Shown in pieces: positions 8,100 through 24,519 of a DNA stretch of 36,422 nucleotides. A program made the position numbers and the translations under genes. This stretch comes from a bacterium (GTDB lineage Bacteria; Sysuimicrobiota; Sysuimicrobiia; Sysuimicrobiales; Humicultoraceae): NCBI GenBank assembly GCA_050694895.1, contig JBOGSE010000219.1, positions 1-36,422 on the forward strand, read 5' to 3'. The notes beneath the pieces are model-generated. The model worked only from the letters and a program-made list of their open reading frames with translations, did no database searches and was not told the DNA's origin. How positions within the stretch are numbered: position 1 is the first letter of the stretch; every line of letters starts with the position of its first letter.

Positions 8100-9246
8100 C
8101 AGCGCGTCCGCTCTTTTCTACCAGCAGTGTCCGATAGACCCCGAGGATCTGATCGATGATCCGTCGCTCATCGAATTCGGCCAGCGCCTTCTGACGATTG
8201 GCCTCTCCAAACTTCCGCCGCAGGTCAGGGGCATCCAGCAGACTGAGCACCGCCTCTTCGAGGGCGTCGGCGTCACGGGCCTGGACGAGGAGCCCGTTGC
8301 GCCCGCCGGTGACCACCTCGCGGCACCCACGAACATCGGTGAGGACCAGGGGCAGCCCCATGGCCGCTGCCTCCACCGCTGACCGCGGAAACCCCTCCCG
8401 GTACGATGGCAGCACAAAGATGTCCATCGCCCTGTAGAGCGCCGGCAGGTCGGTGCGCAGTCCCATGAATCGGACGATCCCGCGCCGCTCGAGGTCGGCC
8501 GTCACCCGCTGGGGCACCGCATCGGCTTTGCCGTCGTCCCGCGGGCCGACGGCGATGAAGCAGACGCCCGGCCGCCGGGCCCGCACGCGCTCGGCCATAG
8601 CAAAAAACTCCCGATAGCCTTTCTCCCAGACAAGGCGGCCGATCGTTCCGACCACGGTTGTCGCAGCATCGATCCCCAACGCCGCCCGCGCGACGGACCG
8701 ATCGACCGCGTCCGGGTCGAAGACCGTCAGGTTGACACCGTTCCCAATGAACGCCGATCGATCCGGCCGGGCGATCCCAAGCCGACGCAACATCTGGAGA
8801 TCCTCACGGCTCTGGCAAAACTCAAAGTCCGAACACGCAGAGGCCAGCCGTTCCAGTCCGAGATACATCGCCCGGCGCACGGCCCCCCCGTCTGTCCCGT
8901 AGAGACCGTGCACCGTGTTCACGACCACAGGCGTCCCGACCAGACGCGCCGCGATACGCCCAAACACGCCGGTCTTGGGATTGTGTGTGTGTACGATGTC
9001 GAACCGCTCCCGGCGCAAGATCCCGGTCAGCACGGTGCACGCCCGAACGTCGGCCAGCGGCGCCCACGAACGTCGCAGCGTCGGAACGGTCAGGTGGCGG
9101 ATACCTGCCGCCTGGAGCGCCTCGATCCATGGGCCGTCGCCGCTGATCGCCGTGACGTCGAATCCAGCCGCCTGAAAGGCGCGCAGCTGATGCCCCAGCA
9201 GAAGCTCAAGACTGATGTCGGATGTGGTCAGGTGCGCCAGTTTCAT
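8062..9246 (-). CDS. Glycosyltransferase family 4
   Basis: The ORF extends to 9684, but the first 146 codons overlap the upstream gene and are Arg/Gly-rich. ATG 9246..9244 (MKLAHLTTSDISLELLLGHQL) makes an ATGA overlap with the upstream stop. E-x7-E region LPSYREGFPRSAVEAAAMGLP. Confidence 0.85.
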   Translation of the reverse strand: MKLAHLTTSDISLELLLGHQLRAFQAAGFDVTAISGDGPWIEALQAAGIRHLTVPTLRRSWAPLADVRACTVLTGILRRERFDIVHTHNPKTGVFGRIAARLVGTPVVVNTVHGLYGTDGGAVRRAMYLGLERLASACSDFEFCQSREDLQMLRRLGIARPDRSAFIGNGVNLTVFDPDAVDRSVARAALGIDAATTVVGTIGRLVWEKGYREFFAMAERVRARRPGVCFIAVGPRDDGKADAVPQRVTADLERRGIVRFMGLRTDLPALYRAMDIFVLPSYREGFPRSAVEAAAMGLPLVLTDVRGCREVVTGGRNGLLVQARDADALEEAVLSLLDAPDLRRKFGEANRQKALAEFDERRIIDQILGVYRTLLVEKSGRAVDGIGQEGISGR

Positions 9247-10868
9247 TGCTGTCGCAGAGGCTCCGGTCCGCCGCTCACGAGCGCCTGCGTATGGAACGGC
9301 AAATGCTTCCCGCCCGCGGTCAGCACCGGCTCCCGCCGTACCACACGAATCGTTTCGGCCTCGCGCCACAGGGGCGGCATCACACTCTGCGATCGATTCC
9401 TCCCGCCCAGCTCTTCGATGAACCGGGCCCGTATGCGTGCCTCGTCGATCGGGCCGACAACCGGACTCACGACCAGGTAGATCCGGGTCATATGCTCGTC
9501 GTCCTCGGCCTCCAGCAACTGGTAATCGATGCTCCGACCACCGAATGCTTGAGGCAAGACCTGTTCCAGAATCCGCACGCAGTCCGTCCCGAGCACCGTC
9601 ACACCTTCCCCGGTGAGTTTTGAGAAGCTCCTGATCGCCGAGAGGTGCGTATGCATCCCGAGTTCGTCCCAGATGCACCCACACCGGCGTATGGTGACGT
9701 CACCAAAGTCGTCACTCTCGACGTTGAGGAGGATCTTCGGGCTGGACGGGAGGAGTGTCGTGAACACAAGGCTGTCCACCAGAGTCCCGTCAGGCAGCGG
9801 GCGTCTGTTCAATATGAGGGCAAAGCTATCCGACATCAGGTGCACGTCATCGATGGCCACCGGCCTAGCGCACGCACTGCCGACCGAGCCGAGTTCGGTG
9901 ATCGAATAGCGGGCCCCGATGCCTGCGCCGGAGCGCATGATCTCCTCGTACTTCCCGGGCGTCAACGGTTCTCCGCTCACGACAAAGGTGACGTGTTCCA
10001 GATCGATCCTTCGTTGTCTGGCGAGCCCGGCCAGCCGGACGCCTACACTCGGACTCACGGCCACCACACATCCGCCGTGCCTGTCGCGGGCCGCGCGCAC
10101 TGCGTCAAGCACCATGTCGGCATCGGCGAGCGGCGCGTACTCGGGATAGGGAATGCGCAACCCTCTCGTCATGCCCATGAGCTGGCCCAGCCGGAACATG
10201 ACTCGGTGGCGTCGTGGCACCGCCGCGCCCGACGGATCGGTCATGGAGAACCATCGCAGAGCAGGCCGGCCCATGTGCGCGAGCGCGAGCCACCAGACGA
10301 GACCACCGCCGTGGGCCACGGCCGGCTTCCAGACAATGATGGGCCACGACCCGACACCGAGCGCCTCGAGCATCACGCACCGCGCGGGCGTGCGCTGGTC
10401 GGCGAGGTAGTCGAGGGACGCTGGTACCCTGGATCCTCGGCTTCGGGTCCCGCTCGTTCGGAGCTCAAACGCCGCCCGGACCTTTGTGTTATCGAAGTCG
10501 CTCTCGCTGCACTGGAGGGTGAAGCCGGCGCGCTCGATCGGCTTCCACCCTTTGAACTCCTCGTAAGTGAGAAACACACCGGCGTCCCGCAGCGCCCCCA
10601 GCGTCGCTTCGAGGCCGCGCAGGCGCACCGACTCGGCCAATCTGTCCATTGACCATCCAGCCCACGCCAGCATCCGCTTGTAGGGGCTGGCGGCGTGCAG
10701 CCAGATCTCCCTCTCGACCACTTGCAGGAAGAGCCAGTCGCGAACCGCCAGTCGTTGCCGGATTCGTGCTCTGGCGTTCTCCGGCGTGCACGGGCGGAAG
10801 ATGAGCCTCCCCAGCCTGTGGGCGACGTGTGCGTAGGCCCCGAGGCCGGAAACGGTGGGCACGTTCAT
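9243..10868 (-). CDS. PaaK/CapK-like (coenzyme F390 synthetase-like) adenylate-forming enzyme, copy 1 of 2
   Basis: 541 aa. By-eye ANL/PaaK landmarks in the right order: divergent P-loop TSGTRSRGSRV; GEPLTPG; YSITELGSVGSAC; DDVHLMSD; FTTLLPSSPKILLNVESDDFGD; RRCGC; FSKLTGEGVTVLG; and a C-terminal GGKHLPF lysine. About 60-65 percent identical by eye to 22891..24519. Confidence 0.7.
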   Translation of the reverse strand: MNVPTVSGLGAYAHVAHRLGRLIFRPCTPENARARIRQRLAVRDWLFLQVVEREIWLHAASPYKRMLAWAGWSMDRLAESVRLRGLEATLGALRDAGVFLTYEEFKGWKPIERAGFTLQCSESDFDNTKVRAAFELRTSGTRSRGSRVPASLDYLADQRTPARCVMLEALGVGSWPIIVWKPAVAHGGGLVWWLALAHMGRPALRWFSMTDPSGAAVPRRHRVMFRLGQLMGMTRGLRIPYPEYAPLADADMVLDAVRAARDRHGGCVVAVSPSVGVRLAGLARQRRIDLEHVTFVVSGEPLTPGKYEEIMRSGAGIGARYSITELGSVGSACARPVAIDDVHLMSDSFALILNRRPLPDGTLVDSLVFTTLLPSSPKILLNVESDDFGDVTIRRCGCIWDELGMHTHLSAIRSFSKLTGEGVTVLGTDCVRILEQVLPQAFGGRSIDYQLLEAEDDEHMTRIYLVVSPVVGPIDEARIRARFIEELGGRNRSQSVMPPLWREAETIRVVRREPVLTAGGKHLPFHTQALVSGGPEPLRQQ

Positions 10869-11296
10869 CCCTGCGCGTAAATCTCTACGACCGCCGTTCC
10901 TTCGCTAACCAACTGACTGTCCTGCTTGACGGCCCAGATGTCCAAATCCACCGTGGTCTCCCCAGCCCGCCGGGTCGGGGTGGCGCGAATCCGCCCTTCG
11001 CACCGGATCAAGTCACCCACGCTCACTGGTGCGGTATGCCGAACGGCAAATCGCTTCAAGCGCCCATCGTCTCCCAGCCAGTCGGTGATCATTCTTGCGA
11101 TCAACGCGGTGCGAAAGTGTCCGCTTTGAATACAATCCATGAGGTGAAGGTGGTCACGCGCATAGGTCCGATCATAGTGGATGCGCAGCCAGTTCTCTTG
11201 ATACGCTGCCCACCGCACGAAGTCGGTCAGCCTGAAAGGTCCGACATGGAGGGCCGGTAGCGTCGTGCCCGGCTCCAGCACGAGCTCTGTCGTCAT
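10865..11296 (-). CDS. MaoC-like hot-dog fold protein (R-hydratase family) with a deviant hydratase-2 motif
   Basis: 143 aa. FVRWAAYQENWLRIHYDRTYA aligns by eye to the hydratase-2 motif, with His kept but Asn at the Asp position. C-terminal hot-dog strands GDLIRCEGRI...VDLDIWAVKQDSQLVSEGTAVV. ATGA overlap with the downstream ligase gene. Confidence 0.75.
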   Translation of the reverse strand: MTTELVLEPGTTLPALHVGPFRLTDFVRWAAYQENWLRIHYDRTYARDHLHLMDCIQSGHFRTALIARMITDWLGDDGRLKRFAVRHTAPVSVGDLIRCEGRIRATPTRRAGETTVDLDIWAVKQDSQLVSEGTAVVEIYAQG

Positions 11297-11299
11297 CTT

Positions 11300-12493
11300 T
11301 CAGCCGCGCGCGGCGCCCGTGGCCTCTCGCCGCGCCTGCGTCACGACCCCTTGCGCTTCCAGCGCGGCGATCTCGGCCGGCTCGAGGCCGATCTCACTGA
11401 GCACCGCCCCGGTGTGCTCGCCGCATCGCGGAGCCCGGCCCATCCCTTCGCCCAGCGGCGTCCGCAAATGGGGCATGTCGCCTTCGCCGCCGAGATGCCG
11501 AAAGAATCCGCGCGTCCGCAGGTGCCTGTCGCTCAACAGATCAAGCATGTCGTGCACGGGAGCCACGGGGACGCGCCGGGCCTGCGCGACGCGAGAGATC
11601 TCCACCTTGGAGAATGGCGCGGCCCACTCCGCCAGCACGCGAAAGATCTCGTCCTGCCTGCGCATCCTCGCGCTTTCGCTGGCCAACTCCTCGCCGCGCA
11701 GTCGCTTGTCGCCGACTGTGTCGACCAGCGCGCCCCATATCCCCTGTGCGCTCGCCGAGACAACGACATGGCCGTCGCGGCACGGCAGCGCGCCCGCCAC
11801 CGCGATGTGCGCGTGCCGGCTTCCCGCTCTCTTGACCACCCGTCCCCCGACTGAGGCTTCCAGGAGCCCCTGCTGCATGACGGACAGGAGCGCGTCATGC
11901 GCGCTCACCCGCACGAGCCGACCGCGGCCTGTCTTGCGGGCTGAGGCCAACCCGAGGAAGCCGGCCAGCGCGGCATACGTCGCAACGACCGCATTGGACA
12001 ACCCCCCGCCGATGAGCATGGGGGGCCCGCCGGGATCTCCCGTGATCGACATCAACCCGCTCAGCGCGCATCGGACGATCTCCGTGCTCTTGAACCCGCC
12101 GTCAGCGTCGGGCTCAAACCCCCTGACAGCCACCCACGTCAGACGTGGATTGGCATCGCAAGCCCGCGCATACGTCGCTTCGACTCCCTCAATGACTGGC
12201 TCGACGCCATCGATGACGAGGTCGACGCCGGCACACAGACGGGCGAGGATCTCGCGGCCCTCGTTCCGGCGCAGGTCGACGGCCACGCTGCGCTTTCCCG
12301 CATTGAAGTACTCGTGAATGACATCCTGAGGGTCCTCGGCCGTCGCAGGGTCGACGGTCACGGCGAGGTCGACCGAGCCCGCCGATTCCACCCGGATCAC
12401 GTCGGCCCCAAGGTCGGCGAGCAGCCGAGTGGCATAGAGCATCGACGGATCGGTCAAATCCAGCACCCGTGGTCGCATTGCGTCACAGCTCAT
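11300..12493 (-). CDS. Family III (CaiB/BaiF/Frc-type) CoA-transferase paralogue with Asn at the catalytic Asp position
   Basis: 397 aa. N-terminus RVLDLTDPSMLYATRLLADLGADVIRVES. The region that aligns to the active-site Asp of the neighbouring paralogue (SNSWADFVAGLHGAL) reads GGGLSNAVVATYAAL. Confidence 0.85.
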   Translation of the reverse strand: MSCDAMRPRVLDLTDPSMLYATRLLADLGADVIRVESAGSVDLAVTVDPATAEDPQDVIHEYFNAGKRSVAVDLRRNEGREILARLCAGVDLVIDGVEPVIEGVEATYARACDANPRLTWVAVRGFEPDADGGFKSTEIVRCALSGLMSITGDPGGPPMLIGGGLSNAVVATYAALAGFLGLASARKTGRGRLVRVSAHDALLSVMQQGLLEASVGGRVVKRAGSRHAHIAVAGALPCRDGHVVVSASAQGIWGALVDTVGDKRLRGEELASESARMRRQDEIFRVLAEWAAPFSKVEISRVAQARRVPVAPVHDMLDLLSDRHLRTRGFFRHLGGEGDMPHLRTPLGEGMGRAPRCGEHTGAVLSEIGLEPAEIAALEAQGVVTQARREATGAARG

Positions 12494-13026
12494 GGAGGAT
12501 CGGACGACGCCAGCGTGCGCGCGGTGACCTGACGGCTGACCGCCACGAGTTCTCCGTCTTGATCAACGTACGTCCGCTCCTCCGTGATGAAAACGGCGGG
12601 GCCCTCTGCCGTGCCCCTGGCGGTGATGTCGAGTATCTTGAACCGAACCGTAAGCCGGTCGCCGATGCGAATCGGCCTCATCCACTCGATGTCCGTCCCC
12701 GCATTGAGGCGGGCGACCTCGCGCGTCACGGTAATCGTGCCCGCCAGTCCCGCCAGCGAGGGAAACGCCCTCTCGCCGCTCTCGTCGACGCTATCGTGAC
12801 TCGGGGCGGGACGCACGACATCCAAGATCATCGCCGGCGGCGCGAGGGTACCGACGCGTCCGGCGTTATCGGCGAAATCGGCCGCCCCCCACAGCGGGTT
12901 GCAATCTCCCGTCGCGTTCATGTAGCGTCTGACATCGCTCCATTCGATGGCGCCAGGGGTCTCTACGGGTTCGCTCTCGCGCCCAATCCACGCGCGGAGC
13001 TCCGCGGGGAGTTCCATCTCGACCAC
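12490..13026 (-). CDS. MaoC N-terminal-type hot-dog protein (probable partner subunit of 10865..11296)
   Basis: 178 aa. YMNATGDCNPLWGAADFA is a near-complete hydratase-2 motif with Asp kept and His replaced by Trp. Hot-dog strands IRIGDRLTVRFKILDI...FITEERTYVDQDGELVAV. ATGA overlap with the downstream CoA-transferase. Confidence 0.7.
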   Translation of the reverse strand: MVEMELPAELRAWIGRESEPVETPGAIEWSDVRRYMNATGDCNPLWGAADFADNAGRVGTLAPPAMILDVVRPAPSHDSVDESGERAFPSLAGLAGTITVTREVARLNAGTDIEWMRPIRIGDRLTVRFKILDITARGTAEGPAVFITEERTYVDQDGELVAVSRQVTARTLASSDPP

Positions 13027-13033
13027 CTCGTCG

Positions 13034-14242
13034 CTACGCGAGCACGCCTTCGTCGTGCAGCCGGGCGAGCTCCGCGTCGCTCATCCCCAGCAGATCGTGG
13101 AGGACCTCGCGCGTGTGTTCGCCGAGCCGCGGGCCGGCACGGTCGACACGGGCGCCGGCGGCGTCAAATCGAATCGGCGCAGGGAATACCGGCATCTCGC
13201 CGATCACCGGATGGTGGACAGACCGCCGTCCGGGGGAGAATCGCGGGAGGTCGTCGAGGACCTCACCGGTAGTGCGGACCGCGGTCGCTGGAATCCCCGC
13301 CCGCTGGAGCGTTTCCTCCGCCTGACGGGCGGGCCGACGCCGAGTCCAGGCCTCGATGCTGCGGTCGATCTCTTCGGCGTGCGCCAGCCGGGCCTGAAGC
13401 GAATCGAAGCGGGGATCCGAGAGAACATCATCACCTAAGAGGCCTACAAGTGACCGCCACTCGGCGGCGTCTCCCACGCTCAACACGCACCAGGCGTCCT
13501 CGCCATCGCATCGGTAACACCCTTGCGGCGCGCGCGTCATCGACCGATTGCCCGCGCGCCCCACCGCCCGCCCGGCGCGCTGAGATGCCATCACCAGATG
13601 CCCAAGCGGCAGCACATTCGCCTCATACTGGCTCAGGTCAATCCAGCACCCCTGCCCATGCACCTCGCGCCGGCACAGCGCCGCCGCGACGACGAGGGCC
13701 CCGTGGAGACCGGCGACAAAATCGGCCCAGGAGTTCGACACGGCGACGGGAGGATCACCGGGGCTGCCGGTTGTGAGCATCAGGCCCGAGAGGGCCTGAA
13801 TGATGATGTTGAAGCTCACCCAATCCGCGTGCGGGCCGTGAGCGCCCAACCCGGACATGCTCACATAGATCAGTCGCCGGTTGCGCTCCAGCACCCGGTC
13901 CGGGCCCAGGCCCAGTCGCTCCATGACCCCAACGCTGAAGTTCTCGGTCAGCACGTCGCTGCGCTCCGCAAGCGCCAGCGCGATCTCGATACCTTCAGGA
14001 TGCTTGAGGTTGATGGCCACGGAGCGCTTGTTGCGATTCAGGCTCGCGAAGATGGCGCTTCCCTCGAGGTCCTGGGGGCCACCCGGCCGAAACGGGCCCA
14101 GCCGGCGCGCCTGATCCGGCGCCATGCCGCTTTCCACCTTTACGACGTCCGCGCCCAAGTCTGCCAGAAGACTCGTCGCAAAGGGCCCCGTCACGACGTG
14201 ACCAAAGTCGAGAATGCGCACCCCAGAAAGTGGAAGGCTCAT
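13034..14242 (-). CDS. Family III CoA-transferase (catalytic Asp present)
   Basis: 402 aa. MSLPLSGVRILDFGHVVTGPFATSLLADLGADVVKVES and the active-site region VSNSWADFVAGLHGALVVAAAL (D...G.H, as in Frc-type enzymes). Confidence 0.9.
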   Translation of the reverse strand: MSLPLSGVRILDFGHVVTGPFATSLLADLGADVVKVESGMAPDQARRLGPFRPGGPQDLEGSAIFASLNRNKRSVAINLKHPEGIEIALALAERSDVLTENFSVGVMERLGLGPDRVLERNRRLIYVSMSGLGAHGPHADWVSFNIIIQALSGLMLTTGSPGDPPVAVSNSWADFVAGLHGALVVAAALCRREVHGQGCWIDLSQYEANVLPLGHLVMASQRAGRAVGRAGNRSMTRAPQGCYRCDGEDAWCVLSVGDAAEWRSLVGLLGDDVLSDPRFDSLQARLAHAEEIDRSIEAWTRRRPARQAEETLQRAGIPATAVRTTGEVLDDLPRFSPGRRSVHHPVIGEMPVFPAPIRFDAAGARVDRAGPRLGEHTREVLHDLLGMSDAELARLHDEGVLA

Positions 14243-14279
14243 GCCGCGTTGCTGACCAACGTCGCCCGGCTCTGCACTG

Positions 14280-15158
14280 CTACAGATACAGGGTGCCCAC
14301 CCGCACCGAGCCCACCAGCCGTCCCATCTGTCCAGCTGCTACCCGGAGCCAGACTCCCTGCCGCTCACCGATGAAGAAATCCCCCACATGGAGAAGGAGC
14401 CAGGCGTACTGGCGCGCCGCCCGTCCGAGGTTTCGGGGCATCCCGTATCGCCGAAACTTCTTAAAGAGTATGGGATGTACAATGCCATAACGAAAATGCT
14501 GACGCCAGACCTCCTCCAACCGCTCGCGCCGGCGTTTCAGTACAATAGCAGCGGGCTCGACATGCAGGTCGAATCCCGCGAGCTGCACTCTCCAGCAAAA
14601 GTCCACATCCTCGGTCGGCAATTTCTCATCAAACCCCGCAACACGCTCCAACGCCGTCCGGGAGACGCTCAGGTTCGCCGTAAGGCCATAGGGTAGAAAC
14701 GCGAAGAAATCGTGCCCGCTCTTCTCTCTCCCCCCGCTGCCTGTCACGTGGCCCTTCGTGGAGGGGGACGCTTTCTCTGGATGCATGACTCCCAAGAACT
14801 GAATCTCGCCCGCCACGAGATGATGACGTTCGAGCGCGGCCGCCATCGCACCAAGCCAGCCCGGTTGCACGACGTCGTCCTGATCGCAGAAGAGGAATGC
14901 ATCCCCCGCCGCCACCGTAGCCGCGATGTTGTAGGCGGCGCCGGGGCCGCGACGGGCTGAGGCATCGATCACACGGAGATGAGGCATCTTGTCTTTGAAG
15001 GCGCGAGCGATCTCAAGTGTACGATCGCTGGAGCCGTTGTCCGCCACGATCAGTTCCCAGGAGCCGTCGTATGTCTGTCCGGCGAGCGCCTCGAGCTGCT
15101 CGCCGATCGTCTCTTCCCCATTCCAGGTGGCTACGATGACGGACAGGGTGCGGCCCAT
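14280..15158 (-). CDS. Glycosyltransferase family 2
   Basis: The ORF extends to 15494 over the 3' end of the upstream aminotransferase gene. ATG at 15158 gives MGRTLSVIVATWNGEETIGEQLEALAGQTYDGSWELIVADNGSSDRT, and the DxD-type motif FCDQDDV follows. Confidence 0.85.
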   Translation of the reverse strand: MGRTLSVIVATWNGEETIGEQLEALAGQTYDGSWELIVADNGSSDRTLEIARAFKDKMPHLRVIDASARRGPGAAYNIAATVAAGDAFLFCDQDDVVQPGWLGAMAAALERHHLVAGEIQFLGVMHPEKASPSTKGHVTGSGGREKSGHDFFAFLPYGLTANLSVSRTALERVAGFDEKLPTEDVDFCWRVQLAGFDLHVEPAAIVLKRRRERLEEVWRQHFRYGIVHPILFKKFRRYGMPRNLGRAARQYAWLLLHVGDFFIGERQGVWLRVAAGQMGRLVGSVRVGTLYL

Positions 15159-15178
15159 CGCGCTGTCAGGGTTCTGGC

Positions 15179-16327: not shown

Positions 16328-16733
16328 GTTGCTTGGCCGCCTCAAGGAACGCCTCGTAGTCACGGTGATAGTCGGATTCGTCATAGAGGTCGCTGGCAAG
16401 CACCATATACACCGTCCCCTGCTCGAAATCGCCTTCGGCAGCCCATATCATCGGGGGGATGTACAACCCAAGCCAGGGCCGGTCGAGCCTGATCCCCCGC
16501 CTCTGATGACCATCATCCAGGGCCACCTCCAGGCCCCCAGCCAAACAGACGATGACCTGTTGAAGCGTCTTGTGAGCATGGGCTCCCCGAGTTCCTCCGC
16601 GGGGAACGTCATAGACGTAGAAGACCCTGCGAATCTGAAACGGAACGTGTCGAGTCTCTTCAACAAATGTGAGACTTCCCCGCGAGTCGAAGACCTTAGG
16701 GAATTCAAGAAGACGGCATCGCTCGAGCCCCAT
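16317..16733 (-). CDS. WxcM/FdtA/QdtA-like cupin: dTDP-4-keto-6-deoxyglucose 3,4-ketoisomerase
   Basis: 138 aa from the internal Met: [26 protein letters not shown]...[19 protein letters not shown]...[15 protein letters not shown]. The HAHK histidine pair and overall length match FdtA-type isomerases. An alternative start is at 16790. Confidence 0.8.
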
Positions 16734-16796
16734 GACGTGCCCTTTACCAGGACCAGCTCGCCGGCGCCCACGCGGCGTGGGCGTGCACATAGCGTC

Positions 16797-17816
16797 TCAC
16801 GAACCTCTCAGCGCCCCTTCATACCACGCCGCGTAGTACCGCAGGTACTCCCCCGACTTGACCGCCTCCCACCAGGCGCGATGACGTTGATACCACTCAA
16901 CGGTCCTGGCCAACCCTTCTGCGAGTGAAATTTTCGGCGTCCATCCCAGCGCCTGCCTCGCCCTGCCTGCATCGAGCGCATACCGCCGGTCGTGGGCCGG
17001 GCGATCGCGTGTGAACTGCAAGAGACTCGGAGAAGCGCCCACAAGCCTGAGAATCGTCTCCGCCACGGCGATGTTAGGCAGCACGCCTCCAGCGGCGAGA
17101 TTGTAGACGCCCTCCAGTCGTGCGCAGTCCACCGCGGCCAGAAGCGCGGCGCAGTGGTCCTCGACGAACAACCAGTCCCGTTCCTGGCGGCCGTCGCCGT
17201 AGACGGGAATGGGCTTGCGCTCCATGGCGTTGGTGATCGCCAGCGGGATGAGCTTTTCTGGGAACTGGAACGGGCCATAGTTGTTTGTGCACCGGGTAAT
17301 GACGACCGGCACACCATGGGTCTTGGCGTATGCCTGGCACAGCAGGTCGGCGGCGGCTTTACTTGCCGCGTAGGGACTCGTTGGATGAAGGGGCGCGTCC
17401 TCGGCAAACGCTACGGCCGGCGGGGTCGGCCCATACACCTCATCGGTGCTCACCTGAATGAACCGTTGCACCCCGAACTGCAGCGCCGCATCCAGCAGGA
17501 CCCGCACACCTCCGACGTTGGTGTGGATGAACGGGCCAGCGTCCATGATGCTGCGGTCGACGTGAGACTCTGCGGCGAAATTCGCGACGACGTCGACGCC
17601 ATCTCGAAACACGCCGTGCACCGTCGGTGGATCCCCGATGTCACCCTTCACAAACCTAAAGTGGGGGTGCGTGGCCACGTCGCGAAGGTTTTCGAGGTTG
17701 CCGGCATAGGTCAGCTTGTCCAACACCGTAACCTGCCACTCTGGCCGGCATCGCACTACATGTCGGGCAAAGTGACTCCCGATGAATCCCGACCCGCCCG
17801 TAATGAGAATCTTCAT
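16797..17816 (-). CDS. rfbB: dTDP-glucose 4,6-dehydratase (RmlB/RfbB)
   Basis: 339 aa. MKILITGGSGFIGSHF, SPYAASKAAADLL (Y-x3-K), and a C-terminal region typical of RmlB. Confidence 0.95.
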   Translation of the reverse strand: MKILITGGSGFIGSHFARHVVRCRPEWQVTVLDKLTYAGNLENLRDVATHPHFRFVKGDIGDPPTVHGVFRDGVDVVANFAAESHVDRSIMDAGPFIHTNVGGVRVLLDAALQFGVQRFIQVSTDEVYGPTPPAVAFAEDAPLHPTSPYAASKAAADLLCQAYAKTHGVPVVITRCTNNYGPFQFPEKLIPLAITNAMERKPIPVYGDGRQERDWLFVEDHCAALLAAVDCARLEGVYNLAAGGVLPNIAVAETILRLVGASPSLLQFTRDRPAHDRRYALDAGRARQALGWTPKISLAEGLARTVEWYQRHRAWWEAVKSGEYLRYYAAWYEGALRGS

Positions 17817-18274
17817 CGGTGGCTGAGGCTCCAGTCGTAGGGGACACCGGGGTCGTCGTGAGGGAGCCGATACTCGTCCGGTGCTAGATAGTCATAGATC
17901 CGGGTGGGGATGTTGACGAGGATCGCCTCGCGCGGCCCCTCAGCCGCGACGCCGTGGTACACGAGCGGTGGAACGATGACCAACAGTGGATTGAGGACAC
18001 CGGTATGAAACTCGTTGATGACGCCCTTCGTGGGACTCTCATTCCGGGGATCGTACAGCACGATTCTTGCCATGCCTCGGATGCAGACGAAGTAGTCCCA
18101 CTGATCCCTGTGATAGTGCCAGGCTTTGATCACCCCGGGATAGCACGCTGTCAGATAGACCTGCCCAAAGGCGCGGAACTCCGGCCAGTCGCTCCGCAGC
18201 ATTTCCATGAGAAATCCGCGATCGTCGGGCAGGACCTTCAACGACCTGACGGTCACACCGTTGATCAGGTTCAC
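17813..18274 (-). CDS. Short (SpsL-type) dTDP-4-dehydrorhamnose 3,5-epimerase-like cupin
   Basis: 153 aa. LKVLPDDRGFLMEMLRSDW...PGVIKAWHYHRDQWDYFVCIRGMARIVLYD...VPPLVYHG. RmlC-family cupin of the short form. ATGA overlap with rfbB. Confidence 0.75.
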   Translation of the reverse strand: MNLINGVTVRSLKVLPDDRGFLMEMLRSDWPEFRAFGQVYLTACYPGVIKAWHYHRDQWDYFVCIRGMARIVLYDPRNESPTKGVINEFHTGVLNPLLVIVPPLVYHGVAAEGPREAILVNIPTRIYDYLAPDEYRLPHDDPGVPYDWSLSHR

Positions 18275-18286
18275 CGCACTCTCCCG

Positions 18287-19354
18287 CTAGATTGTGATTT
18301 CTGAATGGTCGCTGATGAACACTCGCAGGGCCTTCGGGCCATTCTCTGCCCGCCGGATGGTCACGAAGCGTCCCAGCACGCTGTCTTCCAACCGATCGAT
18401 GCCTACAAGCTGGCAGTGTGCCAGGACGACGGAGTGCTGCACCGCCACTTGCGCCACCACCGTATCGTGGCCGATCGCGGTATACGGCCCCACGAATGCA
18501 TCACGGATCTGGCACCGTTCGCCGACAACTACCGGGCCGCGAATGACGCTGCGCTCGACGGTGGTGCCTGGACCGATCTCCACCCGGCCCGTGACGACCG
18601 AGGCCTCGTCCACCGTGCCCTGGATCTTCCGTGTCGCAATCTCATCCAGAACGGCTCGGTTGGCCTCCAGCAGATCATCCTTCTTCCCCGTATCAAGCCA
18701 CCAGCCGTCGAGTTTGACCGTTTCCACCTTGGCTCCACTACTGGACAGTTCCTGAATGGCGTCGGTGATCTCTAGCTCACCCCGTCGCGATGGACGGATT
18801 CGGTCGATGGCCGCGTGAACGCTCGGCCGGAAGAAGTACACTCCCACTAGCGCGAGGTTGCTCGGCGGATGCTGTGGCTTTTCGATCAGGGCGGTCATCC
18901 TCCCGTCGGCATCCACGACGGCCACGCCGAACTGGCGCGGGTCGGCGACCTCCTTCAGGAGGATAAGGGCTTCGGCATCGCTTTCCAGGAACCGGCTGTG
19001 GAGGTGCTGCACCCCGCCCTGAATCAGGTTATCCCCCAGAAACATCAGGAACGGACTGTCCCCAAGGAATGGGCGGGCCGTACGGACCGCGTGCGCTAGT
19101 CCGCCGGGCACGTCCTGTGGAATGTAACTGATCTTCACACCCCATTGCTCGCCGTTGCCCACGGAGTTGCGGATGGCTTCCCCCGTCTCCGGATCAATGA
19201 TGATGCCGACATCTCGGATACCGGCCTGCGCGACCTGGTCCAGGACAAAATGCACGATGGGTCGGTTGGCCACCGGAATCAGCTGCTTGGCGCCCGTGTG
19301 GGTCAGCGGCCTCAGCCGCGTGCCCCGTCCCCCGCACAGCACCAGGCCCTTCAT
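18287..19354 (-). CDS. rmlA: Glucose-1-phosphate thymidylyltransferase, long form with a C-terminal left-handed beta-helix
   Basis: The start is placed at [33 protein letters not shown] (355 aa). The alternative ATG is at 19381. The ORF-track extension to 19546 (GTG) is Arg-rich and unlikely to be coding. Confidence 0.85.
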
Positions 19355-19398
19355 CTGGTTCCCGTTGGTCAGATCCGTCATGTTCCTACACGACCGAC

Positions 19399-20301
19399 TT
19401 ATTCCGTCTGGGGCGGAGCCTCTAATGCCGTACGGGAGCCTTTGCCCGCTCCTCCTTCGGATCTGCCCTCGGTAACCGCCTCGCGTTTGACGTATACGTA
19501 CCACTCGGTCTGGACCAGTGGGAGCCGCGCGACGAGGCGATCCCACAGGCGCTCATGCGGCAGGATAAAAGGGCTCGTGGGTGTGTTATTGAAGTTGTTC
19601 GTGCAATAGAGACGGCCCCCTGACTTCAGGACTGCGACCAGCCTGGGCAGGAGAGCTTCCAACTCCGTCGCGGCAAGGCTGCCGAAGACATCGAAGGCAA
19701 CAACGCAATCGAACTGCTCACCCCTGGGTATGTCAGAGATGAAGCGGATCGGGATGTTCCTCCGTCGAGCTCGCCACTCGGCTACCTTCCAGACGGGCGA
19801 ATCGGCGATATCGCAGTACCAGACCTCGTTTCCTTGGGCTGCCAGCTGCAGAGCCTCGGTCCCGATGCCTCCCCCGAAGGAGAGAACGGTACCATCCCGC
19901 TCGTCATTCAGGAGGGCAAGGTACCCATGGTAGGTAGGCGTCATATGCCAGCGGGCCAGGTCGTAGACGTACTCCGAGCAGTGCCGGTGGAACTCGTATA
20001 TCTGCTCCGGGGTCTGCGGGTTTTCTCGTCGCCAGCGCGCCGCTACCAGTTCGTGACCCCTGGCGAGGTTCAGTGCAACCTCGGACCGTGGCAATCCCAG
20101 GTATGCCTCCAGCTCCTCCAGCACCGAAGGACGTCCAGATATCATGCGCTCGTGTGCCGCTCGGTCCATGACCCGCGCCACCCTTAGCGGCTCCCTGTTT
20201 CCCCTCAGGAGGTACACGGCAGTCGCCACGGGATGCCTGAGGGCGAACCGTGCTCTTTGCAAAATCCTCATCATCCGCGCACCAGAGAGCGGAAGGCTCA
20301 T
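19399..20301 (-). CDS. Class I SAM-dependent methyltransferase
   Basis: 300 aa. Motif [14 protein letters not shown], acidic post-I residue in VWYCDIAD, and [17 protein letters not shown] overlap with the upstream DUF35 gene. The start could instead be Met10/11. Confidence 0.75.
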
Positions 20302-20666
20302 GCCGGCTCAAACAGCGGAAGCGTGTACTCCTTGGTGATGCGCCGCAGCACGACGCGAACCGGCATCCCGATCCGCACCGCCTCAGGGGGACAGTGCACA
20401 ATGTTGCTGACCATCACGGGACCTTCGTCGAGCTCGATGATGGCATAGACGTACGGCACGGAGAACGCCGGGTCGTGCGGTACCCGTTGAATCGTGTAGG
20501 TCAGAACTTTTCCTTGGCCGCTGGCACGGACCCACTTGAGATCTTGCAGATACGGCTTGTTCGCATGCTCGCGGCATCCCGCCAGCGGCCATCGCCAGCC
20601 GAGACACTGCTCGCACCGCAACAGTAAGAATTCTCCCCGCGCCAACCCCTCCCAGAACGGCACCAT
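20298..20666 (-). CDS. DUF35 protein (rubredoxin-like Zn ribbon plus OB fold; partner of thiolase-fold enzymes)
   Basis: 122 aa. FWEGLARGEFLLLRCEQCLGWRWPLAGCREH (Cys-x2-Cys...Cys-x2-His), then the OB-fold part GKVLTYTIQRV...YVYAIIELDEGPVMVSNIV...IGMPVRVV. It lies immediately downstream of a thiolase-fold gene, the canonical pairing. Confidence 0.7.
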   Translation of the reverse strand: MVPFWEGLARGEFLLLRCEQCLGWRWPLAGCREHANKPYLQDLKWVRASGQGKVLTYTIQRVPHDPAFSVPYVYAIIELDEGPVMVSNIVHCPPEAVRIGMPVRVVLRRITKEYTLPLFEPA

Positions 20667-20700
20667 CTCTTCGGTCGGGTTGGGGACGGGACCTGGCCAG

Positions 20701-21903
20701 TCAGTGATACGGGTGGCTCCTCAGGACGACGGTGGAGTGGATCGAGCACATCTGCCCCGACAGGACCTCTGCACCGTGACCGGACACCACGGCGACCTCC
20801 GCCCCCTCCACCTGTCGGCTCTTCCCCTCGCCGCGCAGCTGCGTCACGGCCTCGGCGAGGCCCGTCAAATTGCCGAGATGATGCGAGGAGAGCAGGCCCC
20901 CGCCGGTGTTGGTGGGGATCTGACCCCCGGGGGCGGTCCGCATCTCTGCCACGAACGCGCCGCCCTCGCCCTTCTCACACCAGCCGTAGTCCTCCACCTG
21001 GATCACGACCTCCCCGGTGAAGCAATCGTAGAGCTGCGCCACATCGATATCCGACAGCTGAACGCCGGCCTGCCTGAACGCATTGTCTCGCGCCGACCGC
21101 ACCGCCAGCGTGGTGTAATTTGATTTCTTCCACCAGAGATCGCTCATCTGCTCGCCGAACCCAATACCTGCGACATGGACCGGTGGCTTCCGTAAGTCTC
21201 GCGCGCGGTCCGCTGTCGTCACCACAAAGGCCACTCCGCCGTCACTCTGCAGGCAGATGTCAAAGAGACGATATGGCCACACGACCACCGGAGAGTTCTG
21301 GTGATCTTCTAATGTCAGGGACTTGCGATGCATGTACGCCGAGGGGTTGAGGTTCGCCCAGCGGCGCTGGGCAACGGCGACCGCGCCCAACTGGGCGCTC
21401 GTCGTCCCGTATTCATACATATGACGACTGGCGAGCAGTCCATGATACGTGACGGCGTTCCCTCCGAACAGTTGCGCCATCATATTCGTCTTGGGCGCAA
21501 ACGCCTGGCCGGCTCTCCCAGACGCGGCCTTAGCGGTCTGGCTGCGGCTCCAGTCGTCTCGTGCCCCGGCGCAGAGAACGTATTCGGCGACCCCATGTTC
21601 TAAGAGACTGCTTGCGATGATCAGGGCGTGGGCAACATACTCCCCGCCACGCCCGACATTCTCCATGTACACGTTGACCGGCAGGTTCAACACGCGCGCA
21701 AACGAGTCATGGTGCCTCGCGCGGACGCCGCCCCCCGTATCGCTGAGCAGCTGGATAGCCGCGCCGATGCGCTCGGCCTCGAGCCGGGCGTCCTGGAGGG
21801 CCAGCCGCGCCGCCTCAACCTCAAGCATCAGGACCGAACGGCCGGGGAGGTGGCCCACCTCTGTGACGCCGAGGCCGACGATGGCGCAGGTATCGCTCCT
21901 CAC
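20701..21903 (-). CDS. SCP2/Ltp-type thiolase-fold protein lacking the nucleophilic cysteine (candidate aldolase/condensing subunit)
   Basis: The ORF extends to 22260 across the upstream gene. I place the start at GTG 21903..21901, which is preceded by GGAGG with 8-nt spacing (seen in sequence). Family landmarks are AIVGLG, DICLQSDGGVAFVV, LYDCFTGEV and NTGGGLLSSHHLGNLTGLAEAVTQLRGE. The acyl-Cys position reads NVGRGGEY. Confidence 0.75.
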   Translation of the reverse strand: MRSDTCAIVGLGVTEVGHLPGRSVLMLEVEAARLALQDARLEAERIGAAIQLLSDTGGGVRARHHDSFARVLNLPVNVYMENVGRGGEYVAHALIIASSLLEHGVAEYVLCAGARDDWSRSQTAKAASGRAGQAFAPKTNMMAQLFGGNAVTYHGLLASRHMYEYGTTSAQLGAVAVAQRRWANLNPSAYMHRKSLTLEDHQNSPVVVWPYRLFDICLQSDGGVAFVVTTADRARDLRKPPVHVAGIGFGEQMSDLWWKKSNYTTLAVRSARDNAFRQAGVQLSDIDVAQLYDCFTGEVVIQVEDYGWCEKGEGGAFVAEMRTAPGGQIPTNTGGGLLSSHHLGNLTGLAEAVTQLRGEGKSRQVEGAEVAVVSGHGAEVLSGQMCSIHSTVVLRSHPYH

Positions 21904-21922
21904 CCGTCGCGCCTCCGCCCGC

Positions 21923-22891
21923 TCACTCTCTGAGGAAGGAGTCCGGCGGCATCGGCCCCCAGAGGTTCGCCGAGGCCGGCCGGCCCTTGACAGGGTCCCA
22001 CCGACCTGGTCGATACGTCGACTCGTCTTCGATCCGGTTCGGCTCGCCCAAGACCTCCCAACGGATCCCCCAGGGGTCGAGAAAATATACGAACAAGCCG
22101 TGACTGGGCCCATGCCGCCCCGGTCCAAACTCGATGCGGATGTCGTTGGCCACGAAATGGTCCCCGAGACGGCGGATCTCGTCCCACGACGCGATCTCAA
22201 ACGCGATGTGATGCACCCCGGGAGTCGTGGACCGGACGATGGCCACCGTGGCATGGTCACAGTTGCAGCGCAGCCAATAGAACGTCTCGCTGATCTGATC
22301 AGAAAGCCGAAAGTCCATGATGTCCTGCCACCACCGCGATGCCCGCGCCGGCTCCGGACTCTTCACATTGATATGCGCGAGCTTCACGAGGTCGAAGGGC
22401 ACGCGGCCGGCGGGACGGGGCACAGGCGGCAGGGGAACGGTGAGCTCCACGGCAAAGCCATCCGGGTCACGCAGGCGGACCGCCGGACCGTGCATGCGCT
22501 CGAAGTCCTGGGGACCTTGGATATCCAGCCCCCGTGACCGCAGGAGCGCAACCGCGCGAACAAGCGCTGCATCATCGACCACTGCCAGGCCGACGTGGTC
22601 GACTCCCGCCGGTTCTCCTGGAGACACGATGACTTCGTGATGGGCAACCGTCGCAGCCCCCCGGGGCAGGCTGCTGAGCCGGATGGCCCCACTGACCCCG
22701 TCCCGCCCCGTTTCCCCGAGTCCCAGGGCCCGCCGGTAGAAGGAGGCCGCGGCCTCCGGGTCGGGCACCCGAAGGCTCACGTGATCAAGATGCGTGACCG
22801 GGAGCAGTCCGCTCACCAGCGCGTGTCCCTCACCCTCCCCCGATGGCCGAGGGACCACGTTGATCACAGCACCGGTTTCGTCACGAGCCAT
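21923..22891 (-). CDS. Two-domain type I extradiol ring-cleavage dioxygenase (catechol 2,3-dioxygenase-like, VOC superfamily)
   Basis: 322 aa from ATG 22891..22889 (TGATG junction with the upstream stop). C-terminal domain: LAHINV, CDHATVAI, VHHIAFE and GPGRHGPSHGLFVYFLDPWGIRWEV. The last fits the extradiol signature as I recall it (G-x-H-x7-V-Y-x2-D-P-x-G-x3-E). Confidence 0.8.
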   Translation of the reverse strand: MARDETGAVINVVPRPSGEGEGHALVSGLLPVTHLDHVSLRVPDPEAAASFYRRALGLGETGRDGVSGAIRLSSLPRGAATVAHHEVIVSPGEPAGVDHVGLAVVDDAALVRAVALLRSRGLDIQGPQDFERMHGPAVRLRDPDGFAVELTVPLPPVPRPAGRVPFDLVKLAHINVKSPEPARASRWWQDIMDFRLSDQISETFYWLRCNCDHATVAIVRSTTPGVHHIAFEIASWDEIRRLGDHFVANDIRIEFGPGRHGPSHGLFVYFLDPWGIRWEVLGEPNRIEDESTYRPGRWDPVKGRPASANLWGPMPPDSFLRE

Positions 22892-24519
22892 CACGGTTCG
22901 CGCGCGACCTTTGCGGCCCTTCCCGAATCGAAGGCCAGTGTGTGAAATGGCAGCAGCTTGCCATGAGCCGTCGGAACGGGGTCCCGACGAATGACCTTGA
23001 TCGTCTGTGCCAGCCGCCACATGGGCGGTATCGTGGTGCGTGGCTGTATCTGTAACCTCAGTTCCTCGACAAACCTCGCCAGAACGCGCTCCTCGTCGAC
23101 CGGTCCCACAGCGGGGCTGACGACAAGGCACAACCTCGTCAGGTGCTCCTCATCCTCCATCTCGAGCAGCTGATAATCGAGGCTCCGGCCCCCGAATTCA
23201 CGGGGGAGCACTTCCTCGATGACCCGCACGCTGTCGGTCCCGAGCACGGTCACTCCCTCGCCGGTGAGCTTGGAGAAGCTCATGATGCCCGAGAGGTGCG
23301 TGTGCAACCCGAGGGTATCCCAGACACATTCACATCGGCGAACGGTGATGTCACCGAAGTCATCACTCTCGACGTTGAGCATGATTTTCGGGCTGGAAGG
23401 GAGCAGGGTCGTCAGGATCAAGGCATCCACAGCTCTGCCATCCGGCAAGGGACGCTTCTCGGACAGGAGCGCAAAACTGTCTGCCTGGAAATGCATATCA
23501 TCCACTGCCGTCGCCTGCCCGCATGCACACCCCACCGCGCCAGCTTCCGTGATGGAATATCGTGCCCCCACGCGCGCGCCCACGCGGACGATGTCCGCGG
23601 ACTTCCCCGGCGTCAGTGGCTCCCCACCGACGAGGAAGGCAACCCGTTCTAGATCGACTCCCCGGTGAGCGGCAAGCCCGGCCAGCCGGGTGGCGGTACT
23701 CGGACTCGTCAACGCCGCACACCCGCCGTATCGCGCGCGGGCCTCCAGGACGGCATCCAGTACGACGTCGGCATCGGCGAACGACGCGTGCTCAGGATAG
23801 GCCACGCGCACTCCGCGCGCCATGCCGATGATCTGTCCGACGCGAAACATCACGCGGTGCCGACGCGACACCGATTCTGGTGATGGCTTCGTGATGGAGA
23901 ACCAGCGCAGCAATGGTCGTCCCATATGGGCCAGCGCGAGCCACCACATCAGGCCGCCACCATGACTGACGGCAGGCATCCAGATGATGGCGGGCCATGA
24001 ACCGGCCCCCAGCGCCTCAAGGGCCAGGTACCACGCCGGCGCTCGCTGGTCGGCGACGTAGTCGAACGACGCTGGCACCCGCGACCCCCGGCTCCGTGTG
24101 CCGCCTGTTCGCGCGACAAACGATGGCACGGTCCTCGGGTTGTCCAGATCGCCCTCGGTACACTCGAACCGAAGACCATCGCGCTGAATGGGTCTCTGCC
24201 CCTTGAACTCCTCGTGGCTGAGGTAGACGCCCGTGGCCCGCAGCGCCTCGAGCGCCGACTCCAGCCCACGGCGTCGCACGGCATCAACCAAGGCGTCATA
24301 TGACCACCCTGCCCACTGCAACAGCCGGAGATATGGGCTCGCGGGATTCTGCCAGATCGTCTCCCGGGCCGTTCGCAAAAATAGCTCGTCCCGGACCGCC
24401 AGTCGATCGCGGATCTGCGCCTTGGCCTGCTCAAGCGTGAGGGGCCGGAAAATGTGCCGGACCAGCCCTCGGGCCACACGCACATGCGCGCCGAGATCGG
24501 CCGGGGCCGGAAGGCTCAT
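22891..24519 (-). CDS. PaaK/CapK-like adenylate-forming enzyme, copy 2 of 2
   Basis: 542 aa, collinear with 9243..10868. TGGTRSRGSRV, GEPLTPG, YSITEAGAVGCAC, DDMHFQAD, LTTLLPSSPKIMLNVESDDFGD, FSKLTGEGVTVLG, and the C-terminal HGKLLPF. Confidence 0.7.
   Translation of the reverse strand: MSLPAPADLGAHVRVARGLVRHIFRPLTLEQAKAQIRDRLAVRDELFLRTARETIWQNPASPYLRLLQWAGWSYDALVDAVRRRGLESALEALRATGVYLSHEEFKGQRPIQRDGLRFECTEGDLDNPRTVPSFVARTGGTRSRGSRVPASFDYVADQRAPAWYLALEALGAGSWPAIIWMPAVSHGGGLMWWLALAHMGRPLLRWFSITKPSPESVSRRHRVMFRVGQIIGMARGVRVAYPEHASFADADVVLDAVLEARARYGGCAALTSPSTATRLAGLAAHRGVDLERVAFLVGGEPLTPGKSADIVRVGARVGARYSITEAGAVGCACGQATAVDDMHFQADSFALLSEKRPLPDGRAVDALILTTLLPSSPKIMLNVESDDFGDITVRRCECVWDTLGLHTHLSGIMSFSKLTGEGVTVLGTDSVRVIEEVLPREFGGRSLDYQLLEMEDEEHLTRLCLVVSPAVGPVDEERVLARFVEELRLQIQPRTTIPPMWRLAQTIKVIRRDPVPTAHGKLLPFHTLAFDSGRAAKVAREP

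Follow-up and report, generated by a model that had tools for sequence, protein, structure and literature searches.

Most of the closest described counterparts of the gene set examined here come from bacterial catabolism; the set itself lies in a glycan export operon of a member of the Humicultoraceae (Sysuimicrobiota). The stretch of DNA analysed, hereafter the window, is the complete 36,422 nt of contig JBOGSE010000219.1 (assembly GCA_050694895.1). It carries a core of seven genes, which encode an extradiol dioxygenase, a Cys-less thiolase-fold protein, a DUF35 protein, a first family III CoA-transferase, an N-type hot-dog subunit, a second CoA-transferase and a MaoC-type hot-dog subunit. 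Two adenylate-forming enzymes, here called ligase-1 and ligase-2, accompany this core.

The steroid side-chain hydratase-aldolase systems ChsH1-ChsH2-Ltp2 of Mycobacterium and Thermomonospora and Shy-Sal of Proteobacteria share with the core a two-part MaoC hot-dog protein, a Cys-less thiolase-fold protein and an aldolase-tethering DUF35 (PMC11321319). Ltp2 (6ok1) is the second-best PDB match of the thiolase-fold protein of the window, which keeps the equivalent of its Tyr294. Unlike in the ChsH/Ltp2 system, however, the DUF35 protein is free-standing and not fused to the hydratase, His occupies the position of Tyr344, the hydratase Asp and His are split over two subunits, an acyl-CoA dehydrogenase is absent, and the setting is a glycan operon with a catechol dioxygenase instead of steroid catabolism. 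The Bbs system of anaerobic toluene degradation resembles the core in its adjacent paralogous family III CoA-transferases (BbsEF) and in its combination of thiolase fold and DUF35 (BbsAB). It differs in that the window lacks genes for the BbsG dehydrogenase, the BbsH crotonase and the BbsCD reductase, that the missing Cys of the thiolase-like protein makes thiolysis unlikely, that the second CoA-transferase subunit carries Asn, and that ring cleavage would be O2-dependent.

A likeness to the Hca and Mhp pathways for 3-phenylpropionate and cinnamate is evident in relatives of the window, in which HcaE-, HcaF- and HcaB-like genes are found directly upstream of the same dioxygenase; an Hca/Mhp-like order of reactions would be ring dihydroxylation, dehydrogenation and extradiol cleavage. 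Unlike Hca loci, the window itself contains neither Rieske nor dihydrodiol dehydrogenase genes. MhpB is a LigB-type enzyme whereas the dioxygenase of the window is of the VOC type, and CoA-dependent enzymes replace the MhpC hydrolase, the MhpD hydratase and the MhpE aldolase.

On the glycan side, small in-cluster pathways for unusual substituents are known, and a logic of deacetylation followed by re-acylation is familiar from NodB/NodA, LpxC/LpxD and the MshA-B-C-D enzymes of mycothiol synthesis. The clustering of GT4 glycosyltransferase, N-deacetylase, ATP-dependent ligase and GNAT genes in the window may be analogous to these systems; in contrast to mycothiol synthesis, the deacetylase is of the CE4 and not the LmbE type, and the ligase has an ANL/PaaK fold and is not tRNA-synthetase-like. 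VpsH of the Vibrio cholerae VPS locus, a poorly conserved PaaK/CapK-like protein reported to share 27% identity with E. coli PaaK, is required for a lipid-linked intermediate to receive an amide-linked substituent (PMC13463779). Compared by description only, the ligases of the window are similar to VpsH as PaaK-related proteins of the adenylate-forming type in a polysaccharide locus. They are unlike it in their distance from PaaK (hhalign 40%, ~15% identity in Foldseek) and in an N-terminus that is longer by ~100 residues.

Each enzyme of the locus has a known counterpart (ChsH1/ChsH2/Ltp2, Shy/Sal, BbsEF/BbsAB, Hca/Mhp, PaaK/VpsH), but their combination and its setting are not described, and a full-text literature search that combined extradiol dioxygenase with O-antigen and CoA-transferase found no papers. 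An initial annotation of this DNA had likewise known of no described glycan pathway that combines such enzymes, which holds for the combination but not for the adenylating enzyme, for which VpsH is a precedent (PMC13463779).

The seven-gene core and its recurrence

Three units form a mosaic within a Wzm/Wzt glycan operon: the seven-gene core, the ligases, and a block of sugar genes. All genes are located on the minus strand of the window (GC content 65%). Families were assigned by Pfam and NCBIfam profile searches, which bore out the gene order, the strand and the family names of the initial annotation.

The first core gene encodes a two-domain type I (VOC) extradiol dioxygenase (21923-22894) with two Pfam Glyoxalase matches. 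It scores 140 bits against catechol_2_3 (cutoff 320) and 124 bits against HpaD (cutoff 321), and because both scores are under the equivalog cutoffs a substrate is not assignable. Aligned with 3hpv, it retains the His/His/Glu metal triad and the equivalents of His199, His246 and Tyr255 (motifs laHinv, vHHiaf, rwEvl, dHat, gRHg and fvYfldp). With all ligand and catalytic residues kept, the dioxygenase looks active.

The thiolase-fold protein (20701-21903), an Ltp2/Sal-like putative aldol-lyase, was assigned through PDB matches to the uncharacterised 4u4e (213 bits), to Ltp2 6ok1 (189 bits) and to BbsB 7pxp_C (86 bits). Its VGRGG aligns with the nucleophile motif AACASGG of 7yvy, so that the earlier description as Cys-less was correct, and GRGG stands in place of the Cys motif in 120 of 120 homologues (down to 54% identity). 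Of the catalytic residues Tyr294 and Tyr344 of T. curvata Ltp2 (in that numbering), the former has its equivalent here (QLYDCFT), while the position of the latter is occupied by His (SSHHLG). The DUF35/OB_ChsH2_C partner protein (20298-20666; Pfam 81.9 bits) accompanies the thiolase-like gene in most related loci whose contig runs past that gene. This pairing would fit the aldolase-tethering role of DUF35, a known aldolase-binding module (PMC11321319).

CoA-transferase 1 (13034-14242; Pfam CoA_transf_3, 357 bits) is BbsF-like, with the benzylsuccinate CoA-transferase subunit 9fn0_B as its best PDB match (242 bits). Its catalytic Asp is present (SNSWADF) and invariant in five orthologues, and the retention of this residue makes the protein look active. 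CoA-transferase 2 (11300-12493; CoA_transf_3, 223 bits) had been noted for a change from Asp to Asn at this position. The change is real in the window (LSNAVVA vs SNSWADF) and in the related loci L001 and L175, but the orthologues in L091 and L174 keep Asp. The alternating order of CoA-transferase, hot-dog, CoA-transferase and hot-dog genes is kept in five loci, and the two transferases may form a BbsEF-like heteromer.

The hot-dog pair consists of an N-type subunit similar to HadA and the N-terminal part of ChsH2 (12490-13026; FAS1_DH_region, 52.5 bits) and a MaoC-type subunit encoded by the last core gene (10865-11296; MaoC_dehydratas, 30.2 bits, cutoff 27); HadA and HadB are weak matches of the pair at NCBIfam level. 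Neither subunit has an Asp...His dyad in a single D-x-N-P-x-H motif. The N-type subunit carries GDxNPLW, in which Asp is kept and His is replaced by Trp, and the MaoC subunit carries an invariant YQENW(L/M)RxHYD, in which His is kept and Asn is found at the Asp position (aligned to HadB, 4v12). Five orthologues retain the two patterns with little or no change; one N-type orthologue has Glu for Asp. Because Asp and His of the motif are distributed over the two subunits, an assignment of the pair as a canonical hydratase was rejected.

The core occurs in five further architectures, each inside a glycan locus. In L001/L002 it is part of the same operon with Wzt, in the contiguous order ligase, unrelated methyltransferase, core, ligase, GT4, GNAT. 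L091 has the order deacetylase, core, GT4, one ligase, GNAT, PglC, PglE, PglF, with 4-nt overlaps at nearly all boundaries. A Wzx flippase locus, L174, shows the same flanks without a ligase. L175, likewise free of ligases, contains PglE, PglF and DUF218 and, further along, Rieske alpha and beta subunits, a 76-aa open reading frame (ORF), a short-chain dehydrogenase/reductase (SDR), the core, deacetylases, GtrA and GT2. Finally, the P0147 contig is of the Wza type and carries a UDP-sugar dehydrogenase, ligase, GT4, methyltransferase, dioxygenase and thiolase-like gene. The flanks GT4-GT4-GNAT-deacetylase and GT4-GNAT-PglC-PglE-PglF are syntenic among loci. Whether the cassette recurs beside glycan genes in other genomes had been raised by the initial annotation, and it does so next to Wzt, GT4, deacetylase and Pgl genes. 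Judged by gene neighbourhood, the genes whose association with the core is conserved are those for CE4 deacetylases, GNATs, GT4 and PglC/E/F.

L001 and L002, two near-identical contigs from metagenome-assembled genomes (MAGs), differ in the methyltransferase gene between ligase-2 and the dioxygenase: it is intact in L001 (11850-12485; 211 aa) and a 100-aa ORF in L002 (12183-12485). This may reflect either decay or an assembly or sequencing difference.

In L175, Hca-like genes immediately precede the core; in L003, a contig of Ca. Fervidifonticultor quartus (Sysuimicrobiota; contig labelled Armatimonadota), they are found behind two tandem ligases. The Rieske alpha subunit of these relatives has HcaE as its best match, and the scores are 192.6 bits for the HcaF subfamily (cutoff 145) and 334.6 bits for the dihydrodiol dehydrogenase PRK06200 (cutoff 330). 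The HcaE/F/B-like genes thus point to an aryl-C3 acid as a possible source of the catechol, and together with the kept dioxygenase residues they leave the catecholic substrate of the initial annotation plausible. In L003 (11660-17987) the tandem ligases are followed, after a gap of 3 nt, by an ABC importer of the branched-chain-amino-acid type, a split thiamine-diphosphate enzyme and then the Hca-like genes; the SDR gene is the last on the contig, which stops before any core would be visible.

Insertion of the dTDP-3-amino-sugar block

Between DUF35 and CoA-transferase 1 the window carries genes for an S-adenosylmethionine (SAM) methyltransferase (19399-20301), rmlA_long (18287-19354; 460 bits, cutoff 320), a small RmlC-like cupin (17813-18274; profile match), RmlB (16797-17816; dTDP_gluc_dehyt, 409 bits, cutoff 365), FdtA (16317-16733; 171 bits), a DegT/FdtB-like aminotransferase (15179-16327; DegT, 402 bits) and a GT2 glycosyltransferase (14280-15158; profile match). 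The thymidylyltransferase, 4,6-dehydratase, 3,4-ketoisomerase and aminotransferase predicted for a dTDP-3-amino-3,6-dideoxyhexose pathway are all present. No ORF for a dedicated N-acetyltransferase of the FdtC/QdtC type was found in 14247-20305, where the C-terminus of rmlA_long is the sole left-handed beta-helix segment. The methyltransferase is unrelated to that of L001. Its interpretation as a TylM1/DesVI-like sugar N,N-dimethyltransferase, which would account for the lack of an N-acetyltransferase, found no support in a PDB sequence search and is retained only as speculation.

The block from methyltransferase to GT2 (14247-20272) is bounded by a 33-nt direct repeat. Its upstream copy (20273-20305), the original CoA-transferase start, at present forms the 5' terminus of the methyltransferase ORF (MSLPLSGAR...), and its downstream copy (14214-14246) is the present start of CoA-transferase 1 (MSLPLSGVRI...). 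On the coding strand both copies read CGGC-ATG-AGC-CTT-CC..., which corresponds to the start codon and the first ~9 codons of CoA-transferase 1. The pair, spaced by 6,059 bp, is the longest direct repeat in 14150-20400; its copies match at 28 of 33 positions (85%), compared with 25 of 33 in the best of 30 shuffles, and their similarity ends abruptly on both sides. In relatives the CoA-transferase directly follows DUF35, and the sugar block is absent from every related cassette. GC contents are 0.58-0.65 for the block genes vs 0.60-0.69 for the cassette genes, and these differences, like those at third codon positions (GC3), are modest and would be unconvincing without the repeat.

From the repeat at both boundaries, the absence of the block in relatives and its lower GC content we conclude that the insertion was secondary: a block of 6,059 bp entered a pre-existing cassette exactly at the junction of DUF35 and CoA-transferase, and the inserted module took over the old translationally coupled start. 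The split of the cassette is accordingly a recent accident and not design. Since the block is an insertion flanked by a duplicated CoA-transferase start, we regard the 3-amino sugar as a late passenger or an independent side branch, not as a conserved partner or acceptor of the core. The methyltransferase belongs to the inserted block, and the ten non-glycan genes originally counted are therefore nine.

The ligases and the surrounding glycan genes

Ligase-2 (22891-24519) and ligase-1 (9243-10868) are PaaK-fold adenylate-forming enzymes of an unnamed family, 541/542 aa long and mutually 64% identical. The orthologue of ligase-2 in L001 is 79% identical, and the gene of ligase-1 has 4-nt overlaps with the MaoC gene upstream and the GT4 gene downstream. 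Searches against Pfam, NCBIfam and PDB sequences gave no match for the ligases, and the fold was therefore identified only via structure prediction and Foldseek; one homologue has a precomputed PF00501 hit. The AlphaFold2 (AF2) model of ligase-1, built from 58 homologues (pLDDT 88.8, pTM 0.89), displays the two-domain ANL fold. Its Foldseek matches in the PDB include 4r1m (BT_0428; E 5e-17) and PaaK1 2y27 (E 2e-16), and further 2-hydroxyisobutyryl-CoA ligase 6he0, NatL2 and AjiA1.

Among the ANL motifs, assigned by eye and by hhalign of the 262-467 core, the family has a P-loop TSGTRSRGSR at 138-147; Y321, D387 and R394 are invariant in the alignment, and E325, D386, G520 and K521 nearly so. 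The hhalign comparison with E. coli PaaK is marginal (probability 39.6%, E 3e-4, 185 columns). On the strength of the model we place both proteins in a remote, unnamed branch of PaaK-like ANL enzymes, and with a PaaK-like predicted fold and conserved motif residues they look active. The original designation as ligases agrees with the predicted fold; a sequence-family hit for the two proteins is lacking. C333, H343, C396, C398 and H408 are also invariant in the 58 homologues (RRCGCxxDxLGxHxHL) and may form a metal-binding site that is not typical of PaaK.

The ligase family is large (1,211 clusters at 50% identity with E<=1e-30; at least 505 relatives among GTDB species representatives) and almost wholly from uncultured lineages. 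It is found in Sysuimicrobiota/CSP1-3, Armatimonadota, Dehalococcoidia, Acidobacteriota, Gemmatimonadota and others, and the nearest named relatives are Candidatus Sysuimicrobiota/CSP1-3 and Armatimonadota MAGs. Close relatives (45-69% identity) are located in glycan loci beside GT4 and CE4 deacetylase genes, without the core. For distant relatives (36-42% identity) the commonest downstream gene encodes an NMT1-type solute-binding protein (22 of 73), and other downstream genes encode TctC or TAXI-TRAP binding proteins, Wzx or a sulfotransferase. Such neighbourhoods suggest that in most of the family the ligase is coupled to the uptake of a solute. P0315 (857 aa) is a fusion of a ligase homologue with an NMT1-like binding-protein domain, a Spirochaetota MAG contains three tandem pairs of ligase and NMT1 (L051, 10001-17063), and in the Gemmatimonadota loci L033 and L063 the ligase is followed by an NMT1 protein, with a TonB-dependent receptor as the next gene in L033.

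A tblastn search of all window proteins against 90 ligase-centred loci recovered the CoA cassette only in L001/L002, which disqualifies the ligase as a marker of the cassette. As L174 and L175 carry the core without ligases, the ligases are a separable unit, dispensable for the core and not obligatory.

In transcription order, the operon starts with a UDP-sugar dehydrogenase (truncated at the edge of the window), Wzm, Wzt and a CE4 deacetylase, and continues with a fused double GT4, two GT4s, a 343-aa GNAT, a membrane protein without Pfam match and a second CE4 deacetylase. Ligase-2, the dioxygenase, the thiolase-fold protein and DUF35 follow, then the methyltransferase, rmlA_long, the cupin, RmlB, FdtA, the aminotransferase and GT2, and then the first CoA-transferase, the N-type hot-dog subunit, the second CoA-transferase, the MaoC subunit and ligase-1. 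Next come GT4, GNAT, PglC-like, PglE-like and PglF-like genes, DUF218 and more glycosyltransferases. Overlaps of 4 nt, which are common at gene boundaries here, are found at 24516-24519, 20298-20301 and 9243-9246; the gaps at 19355-19398 and 14243-14279 measure 44 nt and 37 nt, and all five junctions are exactly as first annotated. Start and stop codons overlap those of glycan genes on both sides of the cassette. A scan for sigma-70 promoter and intrinsic terminator consensus sequences, which is of limited value for this phylum, detected no excess and none in the gaps. No regulator, uptake transporter or downstream funnelling enzyme was found in the window around the core. This is in keeping with the initial view of a cassette integrated in the glycan operon and not of a separately regulated island.

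Several glycan genes adjoin the cassette consistently. The CE4 polysaccharide deacetylase directly upstream of ligase-2 (24516-25586; Polysacc_deac_1, 81.6 bits; start codon uncertain) overlaps it by 4 nt, and its orthologue adjoins the cassette in L001, L091 and L174. On the other side, the GT4 glycosyltransferase at 8062-9246, a conserved neighbour of ligase and core, has orthologues of 68-80% identity beside the cassette in the same three loci, and there the position of the GNAT acyltransferase (7500-8099; Acetyltransf_1), between GT4 and PglC, is likewise kept. The PglC-like phosphoglycosyltransferase (6835-7503; Bac_transf), the PglE-like aminotransferase (5670-6860; DegT) and the PglF-like 4,6-dehydratase (3752-5689; Polysacc_synt_2) are conserved partners of the core. 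A PglD-type acetyltransferase is absent and the GNAT occupies its place; this GNAT is a candidate for the N-acylation (or simple N-acetylation) of the PglE product.

Among the export genes, Wzm matches ABC2_membrane with 55 bits and the Wzt ATPase matches ABC_tran with 75 bits; the same ATPase (33385-34665) has a weak match to the glycan-cap-binding Wzt_C (24 bits, cutoff 30.4). The multi-pass membrane protein of 456 aa (25379-26749), which has no Pfam or NCBIfam match, is missing from L091 and L174, whereas L001 and L003 have it at the conserved position between the 343-aa GNAT and the deacetylase. Its ORF overlaps that of the deacetylase by 208 nt, so the start of the latter (24516-25586) is probably mis-set. 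The fused double GT4 (29999-32611; ~800-870 aa) comprises two full GT4 units, and an upstream extension of its ORF runs 211 nt into the preceding deacetylase. After DUF218, a 224-aa protein (2568-3242) has no family match; a weak counterpart is found at the same place in L175 (3902-4462; 41% identity over 40% of the length).

A proposed role of the core and its alternatives

The reading we favour, with a probability of roughly 0.45, is that a catabolic-type module was recruited for the decoration of a glycan amino sugar with a non-acetyl acyl group; the chemistry and the acceptor are inferred. In this scheme the dioxygenase would open a catechol derived from an aryl-C3-type acid, which HcaE/F/B-like enzymes would make in relatives. 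The heteromeric BbsEF-like transferase, with the catalytic Asp on subunit 1, would then load the product carboxylate onto CoA, the hot-dog heteromer would hydrate the enoyl-CoA, and the Ltp2-like protein, held by DUF35, would cleave the 3-hydroxyacyl-CoA by a retro-aldol reaction (or build it in reverse). The hydration and retro-aldol logic of the initial annotation fits the Cys-less Ltp2-like protein, DUF35 and the hot-dog pair. The resulting acid or acyl-CoA would decorate the glycan amino sugar. Two acceptors are proposed because the CE4 deacetylases and PglF/PglE are conserved neighbours: an amine freed through the neighbouring deacetylases, or the 4-amino group arising from PglF/PglE. The transferring enzyme might be a GNAT that uses the CoA ester, or the PaaK-like ligases might act via an acyl-adenylate, i.e., by deacetylation followed by re-acylation. 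In its narrow form, with a muconate-type or shortened acyl group from an aryl-C3 catechol amide-linked to a de-N-acetylated or 4-amino sugar through a GNAT or PaaK-fold amide ligases, the proposal must be considered doubtful.

Several observations weigh against this recruitment. A transferase is not assignable to the product, and the GNATs may be plain N-acetyltransferases. The hydratase Asp and His reside on different hot-dog subunits, giving a non-canonical active site, and the thiolase-fold protein has His at the Tyr344 position of Ltp2. The distant relatives of the ligases are mostly found beside solute-binding proteins and not beside glycan genes. Hca-like genes are classically catabolic. 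Outgroups of the thiolase-like/DUF35/CoA-transferase set (pairs with 61-65% identity) occur in catabolic or uptake contexts, with TctABC, TAXI binding proteins, paired CoA-transferases, an AMP-binding ligase and Rieske/VanA as neighbours; a metagenome scan with the thiolase-like profile returned mostly outgroups of 48-65% identity and three short close contigs. These contexts are the reason why the core looks like a catabolic-type module recruited by one clade. We also have to consider that all sequences are MAG or metagenome contigs, and that L002, L174 and L175 come from one highly fragmented MAG (GCA_030157145.1), which may be a strain mixture.

The same outgroups, with their TctABC/TAXI transporters, AMP-binding ligase and aromatic-degradation genes, would also be expected if the core were a catabolic passenger that, with the Hca-like genes, performs CoA-dependent meta-cleavage of aryl-propionate- or cinnamate-type acids, delivers the products to central metabolism and is merely co-transcribed in glycan loci. 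Every core enzyme family is best known from catabolism, and the placement of HcaE/F/B-like genes, just ahead of the core in L175 and behind the ligases in L003, agrees with such a role. Nevertheless, six of six informative occurrences are in glycan loci despite their differing architecture and export (ABC, Wzx, Wza), and the linkage to glycan genes survives rearrangements. The overlap of start and stop codons with glycan genes on both sides, and a window that has no regulator, uptake transporter or funnelling enzymes, likewise make this explanation unlikely. A different division of labour would have the ligases adenylate the carboxylate of a uronic acid on a lipid-linked glycan and join an amine or amino acid to it through an amide bond, leaving the core functionally separate, whether it decorates otherwise or is catabolic. 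The model is the PaaK/CapK-like VpsH, which is needed for glycine on GulNAcA of the lipid-linked VPS disaccharide (PMC13463779). In the window and in L091 the first operon gene encodes a UDP-sugar dehydrogenase, in L010 and the P0147 contig such a gene directly precedes the ligase-GT4 pair, and core and ligases each occur without the other. We nonetheless consider this improbable: the solute-binding-protein neighbours and the one fusion in distant relatives fit a small imported acid better than a polymer-bound uronic acid, and in the window and L001 two ligases bracket the core precisely.

By far the least credible alternative is the one advanced by the initial annotation, in which the acyl group is placed on the dTDP-3-amino-3,6-dideoxyhexose and so accounts for the missing N-acetyltransferase of the FdtC/QdtC type. 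It is true that the block has no dedicated left-handed beta-helix N-acetyltransferase and is physically nested in the cassette. However, the block is a 6,059-bp insertion flanked by the duplicated 33-nt gene start and is absent from the five other core architectures. It also brings its own methyltransferase and GT2, and its amine may be methylated, free or acetylated by a GNAT of the operon. The dTDP sugar is thus not supported as acceptor.

If the recruitment of the core for glycan acylation is true, it would be the first case of a cell-surface glycan decoration derived from aromatic ring fission, and it would provide a function for a ligase family of ~1,200 clusters that lacks a Pfam or NCBIfam model. 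Should the link be real, the chemical space of bacterial surface glycans would be wider, with catabolic meta-cleavage enzymes reused for biosynthesis. The clean 33-nt duplication, in turn, is a rare readable footprint of how a sugar-branch module enters an operon without breaking its translational coupling.

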